The notes below the pieces were generated by a model. It ran no database searches and was not told where the DNA came from. It was given only the letters and a program-made list of their open reading frames with translations. The position numbers and the translations under genes are program-made. Shown piece by piece: positions 11,132-31,372 of a stretch of 64,000 nucleotides of DNA. The stretch lies in the UHGV virus genome UHGV-2031204; one strand, given 5' to 3'. Position 1 is the first letter of the stretch; each line of letters starts with the position of its first letter. The DNA is from a virus.

Positions 11132-11166
11132 TTGAAAATTATCTTAGATATATTTTACTTAGGTGA
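11132..11166 (+). promoter_or_regulatory. conserved promoter-like element, variant copy
   Basis: TTGAAAATTATCTTAGATATATTTTACTTAGGTGA, 52 nt upstream of ATG 11219. Confidence 0.45.
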
Positions 11167-22133: not shown

Positions 22134-24242
22134 ATGATACTACGTGAATCGGACTGGCGTTATTATCCAGGCGCTATTGTTGACGATAAAACCACAAACA
22201 AATCGTTTATCAAGTTTGCAAATATCCTAAAAAAGCTGGGTGTAAAGCACTATTATATTCATCTCGCCTTACATAACCCTTTACTGCAAGGGGTCGATCC
22301 TTTTGACGAAAACCTAACGGACGAACAGAAAGCGTACATCGCCATCGAGTGTGCTGAAAACCCTTGGTACTGGTTTCGAGAGTGCGTCAGGGTACCTGCG
22401 GACGGTATGAAATACGGGTCGCCGTTCCGTATCGACCGTGGTAACTTTTCGATGTATTGGATTTTCTTCAACAACATCGACGCCGCCGTCGAATTCCTCC
22501 GTCAGCACGGTAAAACCGTCGGGATGAGCGGATTACTGCTGTGGTTAATTCGGTTTCTGGAAAACTCTCGTACGATTCTTATCACAAAAGGACCGGCACT
22601 GCGTGAAGAAACCATTAACAAACTTAAGCAACTACGTAACGGTCTACCGTCGTACTTGTGGCCAGCACATCCAGACGATCCAGATAACCGCGAAACTTTT
22701 GCGTGTTTAGCCCAGGGTAACAAACTGATTACGGGCATCGGCCAAAACGACCCAGAATCAGCTAACGGTATCGGTCGTGGACTCACCGCTGGTCGTCTGT
22801 TCTCGGACGAAGGACCCTTTACCAAAAACGTACACCACATTCTACCGGCAGCGCTGGCATCCGGTACAGCTGCACGTCGTATTAACGAAGCGGAAGGTGT
22901 TCCTTACGGCAACGTATTCGCAACAACCCCGGGTGACTTAGCGACGGAAGAAGGCAAGTACATGTACGAGCTGATGACGTCAGGGATTATGTGGGATGAG
23001 CGCTATATCGACATTCCAACCCGTAAACAGCTCATTGACATCATCCGTTCTAACTCCACGGCAGAAGTCCCACGTATCATGTTCTACGTGAAGTACAACC
23101 ACCGCCAGCTCGGTACCAGCGATGAGCAATTAGCGGCAATGATTGCGAACGCCAAAGGTACTCCTGACCAGATCCGTCGTGACTTCGGGGGTGAATGGAC
23201 GACCGGTGGCTTGAACAAGCCGTTCTCAGCGGAAGATGCAGATCGTATGAATGCTTCCCGTATGCGTGCTGTGTTTAAAGATATTTCACCACAAAACTAC
23301 GTTACCGACTGGTACTACACCGAAGAGGAGATGATGACGAAGCTCAAAGACCGACACGTCATCGGGTTGGATACCTCTGAGGCTGTGGGTCGAGACGCGA
23401 TCGCCATGTCTATTGTTAACTCTGTGACCGCAGAGTACGCAGGTAAATTAACCGTTAACGAATCTAACGTTATCTCTTTCGCGATTCATTTAGCGGATTT
23501 TATGGTGCGATATCCTAACACGGTACTAATCCTGGAACGGCGGTCTACTGGCTCGTCTGTGGCTGATGCGATTATCCTGCAGTTACAGTCTCGTGTCACG
23601 GACTTACATCGTCGTTTATTTGTGAGAATCACTCAGGACTACTCACGTACGGACGATCTCTACAAAGAGTATCACCGTGGGCCTATTGGTAACGCTGAGA
23701 AGTTCTGGAATAAATTCCGTAAATATATCGGTTTCTCAACCGACCAGGAAAAACGTCGTAAACTGTACGGTGAGGTATTCACCACGGCGTTGCGCTTATC
23801 CGCGGATAAACTCCGTTGCGGAGAACTCATCGACCAGATACTTAACCTCGTGGAGAAAAATGGTCGTATTGACCACAAAGCTTCAGGTCATGACGACCTC
23901 GTGATTTCTTGGTTACTTGCGATGTGGTTATTGCTGCTTGGGAATAACCTGGGGCATTATGAAATCAACAACAGTCGATTGATGATGCGCAATCGTAATT
24001 TAGTCGAAAATCGTGAAGGGGTGGATGAGGAATTACAACTCGAGGAGGAGGCGCGACAGCAGGAACTGATGGGGGAAATTGAGCGTCTTGTGCGAACCAC
24101 AAACGGGTTATTAGACCCGGTTCAAGCAATGGCTGCTCGTAACCGTCTCCAGTCCCTCATTGCTCAACTTAACACTGATACACAAAACGTGGCGTCAATG
24201 GAAAGCTTGAGAGAGCTTATCCAACGCCAGAGGATGAAGTGA
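22134..24242 (+). CDS. terminase large subunit (ATPase plus RNase-H-like nuclease)
   Basis: LRQHGKTVGMSG resembles the T4 gp17-type Walker A (RQLGKT); HVIGLDTSEAVG and GHDDLVISWLLAMW resemble terminase nuclease acidic motifs; GGAGGTGAGGAG RBS. Confidence 0.7.
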   Translation: MILRESDWRYYPGAIVDDKTTNKSFIKFANILKKLGVKHYYIHLALHNPLLQGVDPFDENLTDEQKAYIAIECAENPWYWFRECVRVPADGMKYGSPFRIDRGNFSMYWIFFNNIDAAVEFLRQHGKTVGMSGLLLWLIRFLENSRTILITKGPALREETINKLKQLRNGLPSYLWPAHPDDPDNRETFACLAQGNKLITGIGQNDPESANGIGRGLTAGRLFSDEGPFTKNVHHILPAALASGTAARRINEAEGVPYGNVFATTPGDLATEEGKYMYELMTSGIMWDERYIDIPTRKQLIDIIRSNSTAEVPRIMFYVKYNHRQLGTSDEQLAAMIANAKGTPDQIRRDFGGEWTTGGLNKPFSAEDADRMNASRMRAVFKDISPQNYVTDWYYTEEEMMTKLKDRHVIGLDTSEAVGRDAIAMSIVNSVTAEYAGKLTVNESNVISFAIHLADFMVRYPNTVLILERRSTGSSVADAIILQLQSRVTDLHRRLFVRITQDYSRTDDLYKEYHRGPIGNAEKFWNKFRKYIGFSTDQEKRRKLYGEVFTTALRLSADKLRCGELIDQILNLVEKNGRIDHKASGHDDLVISWLLAMWLLLLGNNLGHYEINNSRLMMRNRNLVENREGVDEELQLEEEARQQELMGEIERLVRTTNGLLDPVQAMAARNRLQSLIAQLNTDTQNVASMESLRELIQRQRMK

Positions 24243-24496: not shown

Positions 24497-24537
24497 AGCC
24501 AGTAACCCTAACGGGTTACTGGCTAACTCTTTTTTAT
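24497..24537. terminator. bidirectional intrinsic terminator
   Basis: AGCCAGTAACCCTAACGGGTTACTGGCT hairpin followed by T-run; lies between convergent genes. Confidence 0.75.
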
Positions 24538-25910
24538 TTCTGTAACGACCGGATTAAGAAATATAACAGCAACGCATTACGCAAAGCTGCTAACGCGGAT
24601 TCGTGACGGATGTGTGTTTCCTTCGCCGCCAGTTTCTCAATTCTCGACCGCAAGGATAACACGTACGGGTTCGGTGATTTCGATGCCTGATACAACGCAC
24701 GCATACGCTGCAACACCGTCACCGCATCGTTGAAGTTGATACGGTTGGTAACAATCTCATCAAAAGCGTGTGAGAGTGTATCCTCCATAATGCTATTGAT
24801 TTCATCACGCTTCTTACCGATTGGTAAACTGGCGATATAGGTCAGTAACGTTTTCAGCGCAGCAGGAGATGCTTTGGGCACCATTTCTAGCACCACACGA
24901 GCCAACTCTTCCTTGTACAGATTGTTAATGTCGTAAGACGCATCAAACAGATTCTGTTTTGCAATCTCTAGTGCACCGACTTTATCACGAATCACAGACT
25001 GCCCATCTAACTCGATGCGTGCAGACTGACTAACCACGCGAGTATTCTCACGACGTACACGATCGAGCACCGCGTAGTAGTCTTTCACGGTTTGTTTCGT
25101 ACGTGTATTTAAATCGGTGATATAACGCAGTACCAAGTCGGGAGTATCGAAACGTTTTACGGCGTCGTAGTTCGGGTATTCGGGCGAGCAGAAATACGTT
25201 GCACGTTCTGCCATGTGCAGCCCCCAGTTACCCAAACGACGAATATCGAATTTCATTGAGAGCATCGAATACGCCGCTTCTGCTGCGGGAAGATCAACCG
25301 GTTTCGGAAAGAAGTGATAGTAAATACTCGAGTAGAATTTAAACTGGAGTATCGTCACCAGATCGATGGCTGCAGCGAGGATTTCTTTGTCGCCAAACTT
25401 TGGAATCATCAGGTGCAGCAAATACACGATGGTCAGGTTATACGTATCACCCGCGACCTGCCAATCGGTATTAATCGACTGAGACTCTTTAATCAGTTCC
25501 GACAGATAATCTTCGTCAACGTTAATAACTTCATCGAACAGACGATTACGGTCTGAATCGAAAAAACGGATGCTGTGAACACCGAGGAGGTTCGACCCTA
25601 ACCACTCCACGTTACCTTCACGAGAGAGTATTCCGCTTACGTAGTGGCGCAACTTAGACGCCAATTTGCGATCAATCACGAGTTTATTAAACACGCCGTC
25701 AAACGCTTTACGTAAACGGTCGTCGCGACGGGCTTCGTGTGCAACAGAGAATCCCATCGGGACGTAGCCACCAAAACCGTAGTCGTAGTACAAACCCGAT
25801 GAGGTTTCCGCGCCATCGAAGAACGGATCACGGCCGAACGATTCCTGAGCGACGCGAGTTCCAGCTTTCTGGTAGCAGCCGGATGTAAAATCATAAACCA
25901 GTTCAGCCAT
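24534..25910 (-). CDS. hypothetical protein
   Basis: 458-aa minus-strand ORF, convergent with terminase operon, divergent from the 25984 gene. Confidence 0.7.
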   Translation of the reverse strand: MAELVYDFTSGCYQKAGTRVAQESFGRDPFFDGAETSSGLYYDYGFGGYVPMGFSVAHEARRDDRLRKAFDGVFNKLVIDRKLASKLRHYVSGILSREGNVEWLGSNLLGVHSIRFFDSDRNRLFDEVINVDEDYLSELIKESQSINTDWQVAGDTYNLTIVYLLHLMIPKFGDKEILAAAIDLVTILQFKFYSSIYYHFFPKPVDLPAAEAAYSMLSMKFDIRRLGNWGLHMAERATYFCSPEYPNYDAVKRFDTPDLVLRYITDLNTRTKQTVKDYYAVLDRVRRENTRVVSQSARIELDGQSVIRDKVGALEIAKQNLFDASYDINNLYKEELARVVLEMVPKASPAALKTLLTYIASLPIGKKRDEINSIMEDTLSHAFDEIVTNRINFNDAVTVLQRMRALYQASKSPNPYVLSLRSRIEKLAAKETHIRHESALAALRNALLLYFLIRSLQK

Positions 25911-25983: not shown

Positions 25984-27108
25984 ATGAGAAATTACTTACG
26001 TAAACCCGTTTGGCACAGAATGCTGCGCGAAGGTACCATCGACCGAAATCAAAACGTCAAAATGTGGGTTCTTCCACACGGCGTAATTTGTGATTTAGTT
26101 CGTGTCGGTGGTATGGACATTTTGCGCAACGGTACCTACGATGCGGTCAACTCGTTTCTTGCACGCGAATTGGCAGAGGCAGGTTTACATGGCGAAATTC
26201 TGTTTTACACCACACGCGTTATTCCACAAACCCTGTCGAAATGGTTAACGTACTGGTTGTCTGGTGATCCTGACGCATCGGACCCAGAACTCAACTCAGT
26301 AACAATTACAACGTTGGGACAATACCCAACGAAACCGCTACCATTTCAGGTAAACGTAGTAGAGCCGTTAATTGTAAAAGCAGGTGACGTCTTCGACACG
26401 ATTAAAGCTAAATCCAGAAACCAAGCGGTTTCACAGTTCCTCGTAGAAACTGAAAATGAGGTGTTTCGCCTGGAACCCGTCCGTAAAACGGATGCCACGT
26501 TACTGGCAGTCACCGACTACGGTGTGGTGTGCCGTTCTACAGAAGGTCACACTTTCCTGTGTACAATTTTGTCTCGTCGTATACAAGCCCAGTTAGCGCA
26601 CTACAAACTGAGTTTGAACGACATCATCGGTACTACGTTACGCATCGAATACACGATGTACACCGATGGCAACAGGTTGTGTAACTACAAGTCACCTATC
26701 GCGTATCGAGCACTGGCGTTAGACAGTCTCGGTGATTGGGTTTCAACGACATACGATGGGCCTTCACCGTTTAAAACAATCCCGACACAACGGCCTGCGT
26801 TGCTGACGGTTACACGCTGCAATCGTGCTGAAATCTACGAGGAAAATGGGGTGATTTATGGCTTAGAACGTGAGACAGGATTAACGCTGTTTCGTTTCCG
26901 CCGAGGCCCAGAATACGGGCGTTACGCTGCCGTTTTCGAACGGGAAGGGGAACAAGAAACCTGGCTATTCGATTCCGATTTCTCGGTTGACGTTATCGAC
27001 CCTGAAGGGTTTATTGCTTCGGTCGGAAATCAGGTGTTCTACGCCACCGGTTACAGTTTGGTCGATGTGAAACTGTACTATCCGTCAAAAGAACTGACGA
27101 CTCTGTAA
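25984..27108 (+). CDS. hypothetical protein (early-promoter-motif gene)
   Basis: 374-aa ORF with CCTAAAGGAG leader and upstream promoter-like motif; strong terminator follows. Confidence 0.7.
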   Translation: MRNYLRKPVWHRMLREGTIDRNQNVKMWVLPHGVICDLVRVGGMDILRNGTYDAVNSFLARELAEAGLHGEILFYTTRVIPQTLSKWLTYWLSGDPDASDPELNSVTITTLGQYPTKPLPFQVNVVEPLIVKAGDVFDTIKAKSRNQAVSQFLVETENEVFRLEPVRKTDATLLAVTDYGVVCRSTEGHTFLCTILSRRIQAQLAHYKLSLNDIIGTTLRIEYTMYTDGNRLCNYKSPIAYRALALDSLGDWVSTTYDGPSPFKTIPTQRPALLTVTRCNRAEIYEENGVIYGLERETGLTLFRFRRGPEYGRYAAVFEREGEQETWLFDSDFSVDVIDPEGFIASVGNQVFYATGYSLVDVKLYYPSKELTTL

Positions 27109-27118
27109 AAAATATTCT

Positions 27119-27156
27119 GGGGAGACTTCGGTCTCCCCCGTTTTTATTTTTTTTTG
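27119..27156 (+). terminator. intrinsic terminator
   Basis: GGGGAGACTTCGGTCTCCCC hairpin with TTCG loop followed by long T-run. Confidence 0.8.
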
Positions 27157-27659
27157 CCCAAAATCAAAAAACGCGATGAGAGCGATTCTAACGCATTTTT
27201 CTTCCAGGTGGTACGTTCGTACCCCTTACCCACGTTTATCTCTCCAGAGAGCTTCCTACGAAGAATTTGAGGGTGTTTTGGTTGTGGGTTTTGAATTTAT
27301 TTTCACTCAACGCCATGAAACCGCGATTTTGTCGTTCGTGCTGTCACGCCAACCCCTATCCCTGGGTGGGACGAAAACCCACCCCATCGTAAAACGCTCT
27401 AAAACGCTTTTTGACGCAAAAATCTTCTCAAGGGGTACACTTGGGTACCCGAACCCCGTTTAATTCGTTACAGCTCGATTGAGAGCGTCTGAGGGGCATT
27501 CCCCTCGACCAGTTCCACCCCACCCTCGGGTCGGCGAACCGGCCGCCGCGACGATCAAAAAAACATTCACGCTTCGCGTACTAGCGGATCAGCTGGATTG
27601 ATCAACTTACTGAATCTTCACACACTGAAGATTCAGGTTGAGTAGTTCTCTAGCTTTGG

Positions 27660-27940
27660 TTTTTTGATCTTTTAAAATTTTTAATACTCTTCGAGAGACT
27701 TAGTGTCTCTCGAATCGATCTTAAATTTTTAACTCTTTCAAAAATCTGATCTCAAGATCTCTTCCTTATACGCGTGTGCGCACGCACACGTATAGTATAA
27801 TATATTTATTTATAAATATATTATTCCTTTAGGATCAAAATAATAATACCTTTAGGTATTATTTAATTATATATTTTAATATATATTATATATAAATATA
27901 TATAAAACGCGCGCGATCCTTATTATGAGATCTGATCTCG
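27660..27940. other. candidate replication origin or DNA-unwinding element: AT-rich core with palindromes, flanked by a GATC cluster
   Basis: Eight GATC sites between 27666 and 27937; ~115-bp almost pure A/T core with palindrome AATAATACCTTTAGGTATTATT; no credible ORF. Confidence 0.3.
27767..27794. repeat. alternating pyrimidine-purine tract (Z-DNA-prone)
   Basis: TATACGCGTGTGCGCACGCACACGTATA at the edge of the AT-rich core; a second CGCGCGCG tract at 27908..27915. Confidence 0.8.
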
Positions 27941-28802
27941 CTATGACCCCCCTGAGGGGGTAGGGATCGGTGAGCGGTATTTTCCAGAAAAAACCGAAAA
28001 TCGTACCCGGGGTAATTCGCCAGGGTAAAATCCCCACCTGGGGGATCGGGTAGGGGTCTACCCCGAACACCTGACCGAGGGGTGTAAAACCCATTCCCCT
28101 TTTTCGAACGTTAAAACCCTATGGTATGTTCGGAGGATTTGCGTGGGATGATTTACAAATCCAACCACGAAGATTTTTCGGAGTTCAGGAGTTTACTGCT
28201 CACAGCTCAAACACGATTTCTGTCTGCGAAGATTCAGCAGAGCTCGAAGCCCCCTGACCGGATGTTGGTTTGGGGGTTGTTTTTTCGAGTGCATGGAATT
28301 TATTTCGCCGTGTACTGGGAAAAACAAAACGTTCAGCCTAACACTGGAGTTTGTTTTACTATGGGGTTTGAAAATCGATTTGCCAATCGAACTTACCCCG
28401 AGGGATTTTTGGAATCCCCAGAGTTCAGGTGCTCGGTACCGTTTCCCCGACTTACGAGTGTTGGGGAGCCCGCGCTATCAGTGACGCGTGGACCACATGA
28501 GAAAATCCGAGGGAACCGTGGCAGCCTCTGGGAGCGACGTTGGCGAAAGGTCCGTAGAACTTACCTGCGGGCAGCCGACGGTGGGATACGCTCCCAGAGG
28601 TGCGGCCAGAATGCGAATTACGACGTTGCGTCGAATGACCCTGCTCCAGGTAGCGCTGGCAGTGTGATGTCCTCTAGCTTGACGGCTCGCAAAGACGAGA
28701 GGGGTGCGTACTCCCGTTGAGAAACGCCGGTACGCAGCTGAATTATTTTTTTTTACAGCGTTTCCTGTTGGTGTGACACAAACCACGGCAGGAGATTTTA
28801 AT
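27940..28802 (+). other. hairpin-dense non-coding segment (candidate structured RNA or array of protein-binding palindromes)
   Basis: Stacked inverted repeats: CCCCCTGAGGGGG, AAAACAAA/TTTGTTTT, GGGATTTTTGGAATCCC, and a perfect 12-bp repeat CCTCTGGGAGCG/CGCTCCCAGAGG (28525..28536 and 28589..28600); only SD-less, Arg-rich ORFs. Confidence 0.3.
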
Positions 28803-29165
28803 ATGGATTCCAAAAACACCACTAACGTGGAATTGGATGTTCAGTACAGGCTCGATGAGTTGGCAGCTCTGTTAAAAGCCCCGGAGGACTGGGGATGCAC
28901 GGAGCCAGCGTTACTTGATTTGATCAAGAGCGTGCGGATTTACCAACCCGTCGAGATTTACATCACGGTAGTTGTGGAAGTTCACGATGGTTATTGCGTG
29001 GAACACATCCCTAGCCCTATTGCGCATTATCCGAGCTATCGAGAGTGTCTCCTGGTAGCCGTTCGTGAAGGCTTGGCTCGTGCGATTCGTGAACATGTTA
29101 CGCGATGCACGAACCCGATGGCAGCTGTTGATCAGGTGGACAGCAATGAGTTAGGAATTCTGTGA
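28803..29165 (+). CDS. hypothetical protein
   Basis: ATG 28803 after GGAG at 28791; stop overlaps the HslV-like start; ORF track 5' extension lacks an RBS. Confidence 0.6.
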   Translation: MDSKNTTNVELDVQYRLDELAALLKAPEDWGCTEPALLDLIKSVRIYQPVEIYITVVVEVHDGYCVEHIPSPIAHYPSYRECLLVAVREGLARAIREHVTRCTNPMAAVDQVDSNELGIL

Positions 29166-29665
29166 TGACCACGATTGTTTTTGACGGAAAGACGTTAGCT
29201 TGCGACGGTCAAGTCACCGTGGAAGAGCGTAGTGCTGCCACGCAATACCGTAAGATCCACACGCCGCCCGAGGGTACGACGTGGAATCTTTTGGGTGAAG
29301 ACGTAAAAGCGTTTGGTTTGGCAGGCGATGTCGCCGCATTGCAATCTGTGCGTCAAGAACTCACGCTTGAACGTTTCGGTGGTATCGAACGGGGTGGGGT
29401 TCGTTTTGAAACGACGTATCCCGAACAGATTGATTTTATCGTACTTGCTGTTTTGACAGACGGGCGCGTTATCGACGCCTCGAAATGCAAAGACAACAAA
29501 TACGCCAGTTACGTGTTTGTAGAGCCACCGTATGCGATAGGCTCAGGTGCACACTATGCCCTGGGTGCGTTAGGCGCAGGCGTTGACGCCCCCACTGCGG
29601 TGGAAGTGGCGAAACGTTACGACCTGTACAGCGGTGGACAAACGCAATCACTTAAGCTGTTTTGA
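29165..29665 (+). CDS. hslV: HslV-like Ntn-hydrolase peptidase (proteasome beta-type)
   Basis: MTTIVFDGKTLACDGQVT matches HslV [22 protein letters not shown] including the Thr nucleophile after Met; AFGLAGDVAA resembles AGFAGGTADA; YAIGSGAHYALGALGAG resembles IAIGSGGPYAQAAARAL; ~166 aa. Confidence 0.75.
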   Translation: MTTIVFDGKTLACDGQVTVEERSAATQYRKIHTPPEGTTWNLLGEDVKAFGLAGDVAALQSVRQELTLERFGGIERGGVRFETTYPEQIDFIVLAVLTDGRVIDASKCKDNKYASYVFVEPPYAIGSGAHYALGALGAGVDAPTAVEVAKRYDLYSGGQTQSLKLF

Positions 29666-29672
29666 TGTATTA

Positions 29673-29748
29673 GGGGGTGTAGCACAATTGGTAGTGCAGC
29701 GGTCTCCAAAACCGAAGGTTGGGAGTTCGAAACTTCCCGCCCCCGCCA
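29673..29748 (+). tRNA. tRNA-Trp (anticodon CCA)
   Basis: 76-nt cloverleaf read by hand: acceptor GGGGGTG/CGCCCCC, D-arm GCAC-AATTGGTA-GTGC, anticodon loop CTCCAAA, T-arm GGGAG-TTCGAAA-CTTCC, discriminator G, encoded CCA; very similar to E. coli tRNA-Trp. Confidence 0.85.
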
Positions 29749-29812
29749 GATTTTAGCCACTAAGTTCATTCTCAACACAGAAAACGATATGTGTTATCTG
29801 TGGGAGAAAATT

Positions 29813-30049
29813 ATGAACTTGTATCTAGTAGAAAGAACCGACAGCGTTGGTTGGGATGAATGTTCCGCAATGATTGTTGCAGCCCCTACGGAAGAAGCTG
29901 CATGTGCAATTCTTCCTTGCGAGTCTGGCTGGACTGGTGAGTTGTTATTGGATGGAGATGTGGAAGAGGTTACCCTCAAAGCCACACTCCTCGGTACGAC
30001 ACACTACCCAGAGGGGGAGGTTCTTTACACTGATTACCTATACGGCTAA
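29813..30049 (+). CDS. hypothetical small protein
   Basis: ATG 29813 after GGGAG; 78 aa; followed by hairpin GTGGGCTTCGGCCCAC. Confidence 0.5.
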   Translation: MNLYLVERTDSVGWDECSAMIVAAPTEEAACAILPCESGWTGELLLDGDVEEVTLKATLLGTTHYPEGEVLYTDYLYG

Positions 30050-30219
30050 AACAGTGGGCTTCGGCCCACTAACCTAATTAGAACAATCGAACAAGAGTCA
30101 CAAACTCGTCAGCCTTCAACTGAGGGTCGGTTGTTCTGATAACTTCTGCTCTTGCTCACGGGTAGAAAGCTCCTTAAAAACGTGTAAACACCTACCGATT
30201 AAGTTCGGACTTACGTTAG

Positions 30220-30285
30220 GGTCGTGAGACCCTGGTGGTTAGACCACCTAAACGGTTGTACGGTGGGAGGATAAAACCTCCCACC
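30220..30285 (+). other. three consecutive perfect hairpins in a non-coding leader
   Basis: GGGTCGTGAGACCC, GGTGGTTAGACCACC and GGTGGGAGGATAAAACCTCCCACC in tandem. Confidence 0.4.
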
Positions 30286-30588
30286 TGCACCCACCAAGAA
30301 TTTAATTATTGGGTATTTCCCCTAAGTGTAACGTGAATACCCTGTAATGTGAATTGAGAGTTACGTGTTAACTCGACGGTACTGGTCGATGATCACCTGT
30401 AAACCTTCATCGTCCCATGTCATGCTGTGTTTGACCAGTACCGAACTTTGTCGCTATGCCTGGTGACGTGGCTACACACCGAGGCTGGGGCTCGACACCC
30501 GTTAGCGACACCCTTTTTGCGTTATTGTCAGTATTCTGAAGCTGTGTTCAGTGACAGTAGCGTTTTTTATTCGCGTTGGCGTTTGTAC

Positions 30589-30630
30589 CATTGCTGCCCT
30601 TGCTGTCATTGCTGCCACTGCCTGCTGCGC
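30589..30630 (+). repeat. short tandem repeat of a TTGCTGYCM nonamer (about four units)
   Basis: CATTGCTGCCCTTGCTGTCATTGCTGCCACTGCCTGCTGCGCC. Confidence 0.7.
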
Positions 30631-30724
30631 CTCAACAGACGTTCAACGCGTCCCATTAACCCACACGTCGGGGTATAGCGACGTACAACAGAACGAGTAG
30701 TAGTAACAGAACGAGGTAACAGAA

Positions 30725-31372
30725 ATGCTTACAGTAAAACGCATTATTAACGGTGACCGTGTCATCACTGTGCACGAACGTGTACGTTTAGGTGACAAAA
30801 TGTCCCGTGTTTACAAAGAAGCACTTAAAGTCGCCAATGGCGAAGATAATGAATTGTGTTTTGATAACGCGATTGATTTGCCGAGAAAACCGAAATCGGT
30901 GGGTTATACAGCTTTAACTGATATGTCCGTAGAGGAACAGAAAAGCACCTTAGCCAACCTGCATCCGTTTTTGCACAATGTGTCAGATTGGACCGTTGTC
31001 ATTGGTGGTCGACCTATTCCAGAGGATGTACCACGTGTGGTGATCGTTAACCCGCGTATGCCGTCCTTCGAAGAAAAGAATTCGCCAGTCGACGAAATTT
31101 ATATCCCTGGCAATAATTTCTATTGCCGGTTTTGTGGCTTTACACAGCGTGAAATGACGTATGTGATGCCACCTCAAGAAATCCAATTAGTCCGCGAGTT
31201 GATTAACGAAGATGGTGATACCTTCTATCAGAATCAGCTCCGTAGCGGTAAGCACTCAGTTGACGAGGCTATCGGCGTTTTACTCGTCGATGATGCTTAC
31301 GAATTTTTCTATCCAGGGGATGTGGTTTACATCATGAACAATGAAGGTAAAACCATTGATACCCTGCGATAA
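30725..31372 (+). CDS. hypothetical protein
   Basis: 215-aa ORF; terminator at 31478..31516. Confidence 0.65.
   Translation: MLTVKRIINGDRVITVHERVRLGDKMSRVYKEALKVANGEDNELCFDNAIDLPRKPKSVGYTALTDMSVEEQKSTLANLHPFLHNVSDWTVVIGGRPIPEDVPRVVIVNPRMPSFEEKNSPVDEIYIPGNNFYCRFCGFTQREMTYVMPPQEIQLVRELINEDGDTFYQNQLRSGKHSVDEAIGVLLVDDAYEFFYPGDVVYIMNNEGKTIDTLR

Follow-up and report, generated by a model that had tools for sequence, protein, structure and literature searches.

Organization of the locus

The stretch of DNA analysed here (the window, 64 kb) is part of a jumbo phage of the SPN3US/phiEaH2/Asesino group, and its conserved genes share about 75% nucleotide identity with those phages. SPN3US and Asesino are among the phages that build a phage nucleus (PMC13282480). 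The closest relatives of the window were three IMG/VR contigs (151-225 kb) that come from a single metagenome; a flanking protein was 89-99% identical in two of the three and in a fourth contig from a different sample. A partial protein of the window's lineage (99% identical) is filed under Shigella flexneri, which hints at an enterobacterial host for the lineage.

The element described below lies within a long non-coding stretch, between a conserved gene followed by a terminator-like hairpin on its left and a gene array on its right. The array continues in relatives with an HslV-like peptidase, tRNA-Trp, DNA polymerase, subunits of RNA polymerase and a helicase. In the window, a homologue of the HslV-family peptidase (PHROG 1040) is followed directly by tRNA-Trp (CCA) at 29162-29748, the same order as in SPN3US, SPAsTU and pEa_SNUABM_29, and this tRNA was the only match of an Rfam search of 27000-30800. 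Pfam, PHROGs and PDB sequence searches of the flanking ORFs returned no initiator, small terminase or DNA-binding family. Upstream of the element, non-coding islands kept across genera were observed at 27370-27540 (TTTTTAACCAG, AAAACGCTCTAgAAA and the hairpin ACCCgGTACACTTGGGT); they gave no match in Rfam and could represent a non-coding RNA or additional protein-binding sites.

Alignment with relatives resolved the element into ordered modules over about 430 bp: block U, hairpin A, block P with hairpin B, a variable GATC stretch, box L, a (CG/CA)n palindrome, CAGGATCTTTTAAAA, an AT core with one or two short palindromes, a CG tract, box R, and GATC sites with a GC hairpin. The features in the window are as follows.

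22134-24242: large terminase gene; the element lies about 3.4 kb downstream of it
25984-27108: conserved 374-aa gene, left of the element
27119-27138: terminator-like hairpin, left of the element
27543..27603, + strand: block U, CCGCCGCGACGATCAAA...ACGCTTCGCGT with a small hairpin; GATC at 27553, 27587 and 27600
27610..27636, + strand: hairpin A, a 5-nt loop on an 11-bp stem (CTGAATCTTCA / TGAAGATTCAG)
27666..27715, + strand: block P, comprising GATC, the A/T tract TTTTAAAATTTTTAATA and hairpin B
27717..27759: left GATC cluster, GATC at 27717, 27748 and 27756; ATCTGATCTC at 27744-27753
27760..27774, + strand: box L, TCTTCCTTATACGCG
27767..27794: left GC clamp, the 28-nt alternating pyrimidine-purine near-palindrome TATACGCGTGTGCGCACGCACACGTATA
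27795..27908: AT core, about 9% GC, with palindromes at 27797-27824 and 27842-27863 and one GATC (27833)
27908..27929, + strand: right GC tract CGCGCGCG and box R, CGCGCGATCCTTATTATGAG
27927..27968: right GATC cluster, with the palindrome GAGATCTGATCTC (GATC at 27929 and 27934) and GATC at 27965; a further GATC at 28044
27947-27960: GC hairpin, within the right GATC cluster
about 28121, + strand: start of the downstream gene array, right of the element

The region had been put forward as a candidate origin of replication on the basis of a GATC cluster around an AT-rich core with palindromes, alternating borders and a flanking repeat. Indeed, every one of these features was found in the sequence, confirming the observation, and the element reaches well past the interval 27660-27940 to which it had been assigned. 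The eight GATC sites noted in about 270 bp were located at 27666, 27717, 27748, 27756, 27833, 27915, 27929 and 27934 (8 in 272 bp), and those noted out to about 27550 and about 28045 at 27553, 27587, 27600, 27965 and 28044. Together the 13 sites in 495 bp (27553-28047) form the densest GATC cluster of the 64-kb window, in which GATC is slightly under-represented overall (198 sites, or one per 323 bp; 241 expected). The Poisson probability was 3e-6 for at least 8 sites in 272 bp and 1e-8 for at least 13 in 495 bp.

The nearly pure A/T core of about 115 bp was placed at about 27795-27908. It is the sole 100-bp stretch below 25% GC in the 64 kb (minimum 9%) and the least stable 100-bp duplex of the window (z = 7.5, vs 4.1 for the next outside the element). 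Within the core, at 27842-27863, lies the palindrome AATAATACCT-tt-AGGTATTATT. As for the alternating borders, CGCGTGTGCGCACGCACACG lies inside the run at 27767-27794, and CGCGCGCG at 27908-27915; the former run, a perfectly alternating near-palindrome of 28 nt, is the longest of its kind in the window, the next being 18 nt. The repeated unit ATCTGATCTC occurs at 27744 and 27930, once on each side of the core. In addition, TCCTTAT is common to boxes L and R in the same orientation, so that a direct repeat brackets the core. Block U was written as CGATCAAA plus a small hairpin in the cross-phage alignment, the hairpin being predicted by folding. Hairpin A had a folding energy of -10.1 kcal/mol (z = -6.4). 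Hairpin B, TTCGAGAGAC-ttagt-GTCTCTCGAA, includes the conserved GACTTA, and its stem was likewise predicted by folding.

Conservation and the phage-encoded methylase

At least five genera carry the element, always in one orientation and at one locus, between a homologue of gp003 and the HslV/tRNA-Trp/DNA polymerase gene array. Its carriers are SPN3US and SPLA1a, and also SPAsTU and pEa_SNUABM_29, in Seoulvirus; Asesino and phiEaH2 in Erskinevirus; Huxley, pSal-SNUABM-04 and Caitlin in Machinavirus; Wellington and pEa_SNUABM_11 in Wellingtonvirus; and the window's own lineage. These genera and lineages share only about 75% identity in coding DNA. In the complete SPN3US genome (240 kb), the element is the sole 100-bp stretch below 25% GC (5%; next lowest 26%) and the densest GATC cluster (8 in 300 bp vs 4 for the next). 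In the complete phiEaH2 genome (243 kb), it is likewise the one stretch below 25% GC (8% vs 25% for the next) and the densest GATC cluster (7 vs 5).

Conservation was distributed unevenly over the modules, two boxes showing almost no variation. The right GC tract with box R is the best-conserved piece: CGCG.GATCCTTATTA.GAG was identical in 8 of 8 phages and almost unchanged across 12 of 12, and short matches of 90-94% identity extended to distant genera. Block P, TTTTTAAAAca..gACTTA (TTTTTAAAA...GACTTA), was kept in 12 phages and occurs once in the 240-kb SPN3US genome. Block U has CGATCA in 11 of 12 aligned phages, and its hairpin covaries. The consensus of box L in most lineages is cTTTC[AC]TTATACGCG. 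The sub-motifs of boxes L and R that were tested had 1-5 copies per strand in SPN3US and were paired solely at the element. A scan of bacterial genomes for box R returned a single contig, which is of phage origin; this 13.7-kb contig of the phage lineage sits in a 'Bacillota bacterium' MAG, probably through a binning error.

In other modules the symmetry was retained while the letters changed. Several stem pairs of hairpin A were maintained through changes on both sides (10 phages). The central core palindrome covaries, reading ACC-TTTA-GGT, ATC-TTTA-GAT or ATCCC-GTA-GGGAT, and each lineage has its own, still palindromic (CG/CA)n tract at the position of the left GC clamp. The core measures about 115 nt in the window and about 190 nt in a close relative. 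That the palindromes keep their symmetry, that the pairs of hairpin A are retained and that the length of the core varies argues for conservation of structure over that of sequence. This covariation and the free length of the core are as would be expected of a structural or unwinding role.

Changes were also seen at short range. Close relatives have about 70 nt more in the core (contigs L016, 7795-7975, and L138, 2870-3050, vs 27795-27908 in the window), and the GC palindrome differs between contigs with 99% identical flanks (L015). The core and the GC palindrome tracts change fast, apparently by slippage.

The GATC sites behaved differently from their surroundings. Within 300 bp of the core, 7-13 sites were counted in most relatives and 4 in Caitlin, and about one per 600 bp in the flanks. 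Many of the clustered sites lie in otherwise non-conserved sequence; in the left cluster, for example, the surrounding sequence differs among relatives and the GATC sites stay. Because the sites persist in such a context, GATC itself is apparently under selection. A Dam-like methylase is encoded by the phages themselves. In SPN3US it is gp161, an adenine methylase of the D12 class (Pfam PF02086, E = 2.5e-52); among solved structures, E. coli Dam is its best match (E = 1e-54). Orthologues of gp161 were found in every genus with the element, and in contigs of the window's own lineage at 67-68% identity; the dam gene of this lineage was read from those contigs and is located beyond the 64 kb of the window.

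Cronobacter phage CR5 (Derbicusvirus) provided a contrasting case. The corresponding spacer, with a minimum of 23% GC, is no more than moderately AT-rich, holds a single GATC and retains a GGTATCC...GGATACC palindrome, and no Dam was detected by tblastn within the syntenic 50 kb (65-115 kb). In the same 65-115 kb, GATC occurs at 0.72 per kb vs 3.9 expected, an avoidance of about five-fold. Avoidance is much weaker in the relatives that encode Dam (3.1 per kb in the window, 2.0 in SPN3US and 1.4 in phiEaH2).

The anatomy, uniqueness, conservation and covariation of the element, and its co-occurrence with a phage Dam, are thus matters of direct observation. Judged from its sequence, the element represents a genuine cis-acting site, conserved and present in one copy, that accompanies a phage-encoded Dam. 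The link to the phage methylase suggests that adenine methylation has a cis-regulatory job in the phage nucleus, beyond anti-restriction.

Candidate functions of the element

The element is most likely, as a tentative assignment from sequence features, the replication origin of the phage, phage-autonomous and marked by Dam. Of the functions weighed, origin is the best supported because of the architecture of an unwinding element, the tolerance of core length, the palindromes that preserve structure, the uniqueness of the site and a weak skew signal. The build is origin-like in that an easily melted AT core is clamped by GC tracts and flanked by conserved boxes, with GATC sites under apparent selection. 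The core of about 115 bp would act as a DNA-unwinding element, and the GC-rich alternating palindromes on either side would confine the melted bubble. Once single-stranded, the short core palindromes could extrude as hairpins that signal loading or priming. A phage-encoded factor would bind boxes L and R, which form a direct repeat, and blocks U and P. The flanking GATC sites would be methylated by the phage's own Dam, the full or hemimethylated state marking a site that has just been replicated. Unwinding, factor binding, the role of methylation and the initiation of replication itself are what we infer from this arrangement.

The genes around the element were counted in favor of an origin, a ligase-fold gene adjoining it upstream and genes for DNA polymerase and helicase lying downstream. 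Counted against it were the lack of classical-type iterons in the element and of an identifiable initiator gene next to it. Many large lytic phages, as exemplified by T4, mostly use recombination-dependent replication and may need no strong origin, which also weighs against the assignment. The original prediction of an origin was accordingly upheld in part: uniqueness, the conserved locus, the origin-like build, the phage Dam and the weak skew speak for it, and the likeness to oriC on which it had drawn broke down on defining features (see below).

Cumulative GC skew had been named as a check on the origin. Raw skew was dominated by gene orientation and was uninformative on its own. In SPN3US, the raw minimum at the start of the record was rejected as trivial, the curve rising near-monotonically with most genes on one strand. 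Gene-wise skew was fitted as the sum of an orientation term and a half-circle step, the position of the step was scanned, and p values were obtained by permutation. The switch positions were as follows.

SPN3US (element at 0 kb), all-site GC skew: switch at 236-240/0 kb, p about 0.01
SPN3US (element at 0 kb), four-fold-site GC skew: switch at 8 kb, p 0.08
SPN3US (element at 0 kb), four-fold-site TA skew: switch at about 192 kb, p 0.06
phiEaH2 (element at 165 kb), all-site GC skew: switch at 160 kb, p 0.14
phiEaH2 (element at 165 kb), four-fold-site TA skew: switch at 168 kb, p 0.27
phiEaH2 (element at 165 kb), four-fold-site GC skew: switch at 112 kb, p 0.27

The switch fell 0-8 kb from the element in four of the six analyses and elsewhere in two (p 0.01-0.27). 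The effect was small (r of the step term about 0.01-0.03) and non-significant in phiEaH2 (p = 0.14-0.27), and the tests are non-independent since SPN3US and phiEaH2 share their gene order. The corrected skew thus lends weak support to an origin at the element.

The arrangement of the GATC sites also brings to mind a pac-like packaging start, which was considered an unlikely alternative. Here the terminase or an accessory factor would recognise the GATC-rich arms and make the first cut in or near the core, timed by Dam, with headful packaging to follow. The 161-bp pac site of P1 contains seven Dam hexamers that form two groups around the point of cleavage, and cleavage there is controlled by the methylation state (PMC10028697). 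The element shares with P1 the GATC clusters that flank a central region and the phage's own Dam; it is present in one copy per genome (SPN3US, phiEaH2) and lies merely about 3.4 kb downstream of the large terminase gene. Dam-site clusters on either side of a central region, being also a hallmark of the P1 packaging site, were therefore counted against the origin. The finer details did not follow P1. The context TGATCA/G was found at 1 of 13 GATC sites (27600, TGATCA), and no IHF consensus occurs at the element (27400-28200). The element is intergenic, outside the genes for terminase subunits, and the genes between it and the terminase gene bear no terminase signature. Moreover, the terminase resembles that of T4, and packaging in these phages is regarded as headful and sequence-independent (PMC5694885, PMC5000459).

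Packaging from the element would also account for the assemblies that start or end in or beside it, namely SPN3US, EC001, Lh1B, JN03, SPFM2, Proteus phage 7 and three IMG/VR contigs. The SPN3US record starts about 80 nt left of the core, and about 55 nt are missing at its end/start junction relative to SPLA1a. Of the three metagenome contigs, one stops at the left border, one stops 17 nt inside the core and one starts inside the core. The breaks of Proteus phage 7 and SPFM2 lie at the central palindrome, those of EC001, Lh1B and JN03 at the right edge. The break points thus span about 250 bp, the leftmost lying left of the core and the rightmost at its right edge, and some assemblies run straight through the element, both of which argue against packaging from a fixed site. 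Because of this scatter and of the assemblies that read through, assembly failure fits better: the breaks probably reflect failure of coverage, sequencing or assembly in DNA of 5-9% GC rather than a defined end. The element accounts in any case for a practical nuisance, the tendency of assemblies of these phages to break there.

It is similarly doubtful that the region is a transcription control hub without a role in replication. Terminators would then close the upstream late genes, and a one-off promoter located in block P or box R, for which the AT core would act as upstream element, would drive the downstream array, possibly under modulation by Dam methylation. Hairpins A and B are indeed covarying stem-loops in the position of terminators, and the downstream genes need a promoter, known motif families being absent between the element and 28121. 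In the syntenic spacer of Derbicusvirus (CR5), a copy of the promoter-like motif AGATATATATTACTTAGGTGAG stands just ahead of the downstream genes, and early promoters of the phiKZ type are AT-rich (PMC7598289; PMC5312081). The phage group has two repeated, strand-specific promoter-like motifs, found in the window as follows.

25935, 33912, 41713, 41793, 51285 and 55073, + strand: ATAGATATTATC, six copies
11145, + strand: TAGATATATTTTACTTAGGTGAG, the sole window copy of the SPN3US motif tttCAGATATATATTACyTAGGTGAG

The first, ATAGATATTATC, had 20 matches at up to two mismatches vs 4.3 expected. The second, CAGATATATATTACYTAGGTGAG, has six copies in SPN3US and was matched in the window at 11145 only; it resembles the AT-rich vRNAP early promoters of AR9 and phiKZ (PMC5312081; PMC7598289). 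Both motifs are absent from the element, which argues against a hub. A variable core of 115-190 bp, GC clamps and 13 GATC sites would be unneeded for a promoter, the spacing between box R and the first gene downstream differs among relatives (about 50 nt to about 1 kb), and a single copy in 240 kb would be unusual for a promoter class. A scan for sigma-70 promoters gave no excess over the shuffled expectation. Boxes L and R were also considered as a repeated promoter class, and this was rejected on the low copy number of their sub-motifs in SPN3US and the lack of a second paired site there.

Least probable by far is a telomere resolution site, in which the left GC palindrome would be cleaved by a protelomerase-type or other structure-specific enzyme to give hairpin-ended molecules; although box L with the palindrome of Asesino and phiEaH2 (CATTATACGCGCGTA) shares with the centre of telRL, the target of N15 TelN (PMC12624138), an identical 15-mer that is the longest telRL match anywhere in the phiEaH2 genome (position 165085), and although the tract is an alternating pyrimidine-purine near-palindrome in all lineages, this reading was rejected for want of a TelN homologue by tblastn in the window, SPN3US or phiEaH2 (best E-value 0.3). 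The window shares just 9 nt with telRL, a stretch found elsewhere by chance; the site is a 28-nt near-palindrome that lacks the outer telO arms; and the genomes assemble as circles or permuted molecules without inverted terminal hairpins. The ORF at 24534-25910, which matched a small telomere resolvase in size, was discarded since its homologue is annotated as a virion structural protein.

Sequence does not separate a replication origin from a Dam-controlled packaging start or a one-off transcription control region. In the literature searched on SPN3US and phiKZ topics, partly by loose term matching that returned mostly irrelevant papers, no description of the element was found, and the searchable literature, including a 2026 review, named no origin or packaging signal for Chimalliviridae, the nucleus-forming jumbo phages. 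A published origin-prediction program gave low-reliability calls on giant phages. The element is put forward as the best sequence candidate so far for the start of replication, or possibly of packaging, in the clade of nucleus-forming giant phages that carries it along with a Dam methylase. It offers a precise, conserved, single-copy target of a few hundred bp in tractable phages such as SPN3US and Asesino. As an origin, it might further be the single origin of one clade of nucleus-forming jumbo phages, its firing or the hand-over to packaging timed by the phage Dam inside the nucleus; this extension is speculative and we consider it improbable. If true, it would constitute a self-contained methylation clock that runs without host DnaA or SeqA and is read by a phage factor.

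Comparison with known origins and signals

The original prediction had likened the region to Dam-regulated origins such as oriC. The AT-rich core and the over-representation of GATC agree with this, but the analogy fails on features that define oriC: DnaA boxes, an IHF site and convincing 13-mers were lacking. No DnaA box (TTATCCACA or TTWTNCACA) was present in 27400-28200, even with one mismatch allowed, and the IHF site WATCAANNNNTTR had no match in the same interval. The oriC 13-mer GATCTnTTnTTTT had two matches with 2 mismatches each, both outside the core. Like the element, oriC of E. coli combines an AT-rich, easily melted region with an excess of GATC, there 11 sites in 245 bp and here about 8-13 in 270-500 bp. 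Unlike oriC, the element is accompanied by a methylase that the phage encodes, and its GC palindromic clamps and covarying palindromes have no counterpart at oriC. The protein shell of chimallin around the phage nucleus would be expected to keep out host DnaA and SeqA.

The P1 pac site differs from the element in lying within a gene, pacA; the central region of the element is an extreme AT tract of variable length. The vRNAP early promoters of the phiKZ type resemble the element in being AT-rich and intergenic; their motif family is absent from the element, which is single-copy and far larger.

The primary origin of T7 and oriF and oriG of T4 share with the element an AT-rich unwinding element, an intergenic position and a large lytic phage with its own RNA polymerase. 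We know of no GATC clusters or GC clamps at the T7 and T4 origins, and, in contrast to them, the element has no recognisable phage promoter motif upstream of its core. The unique and conserved block P could itself be a one-off promoter.
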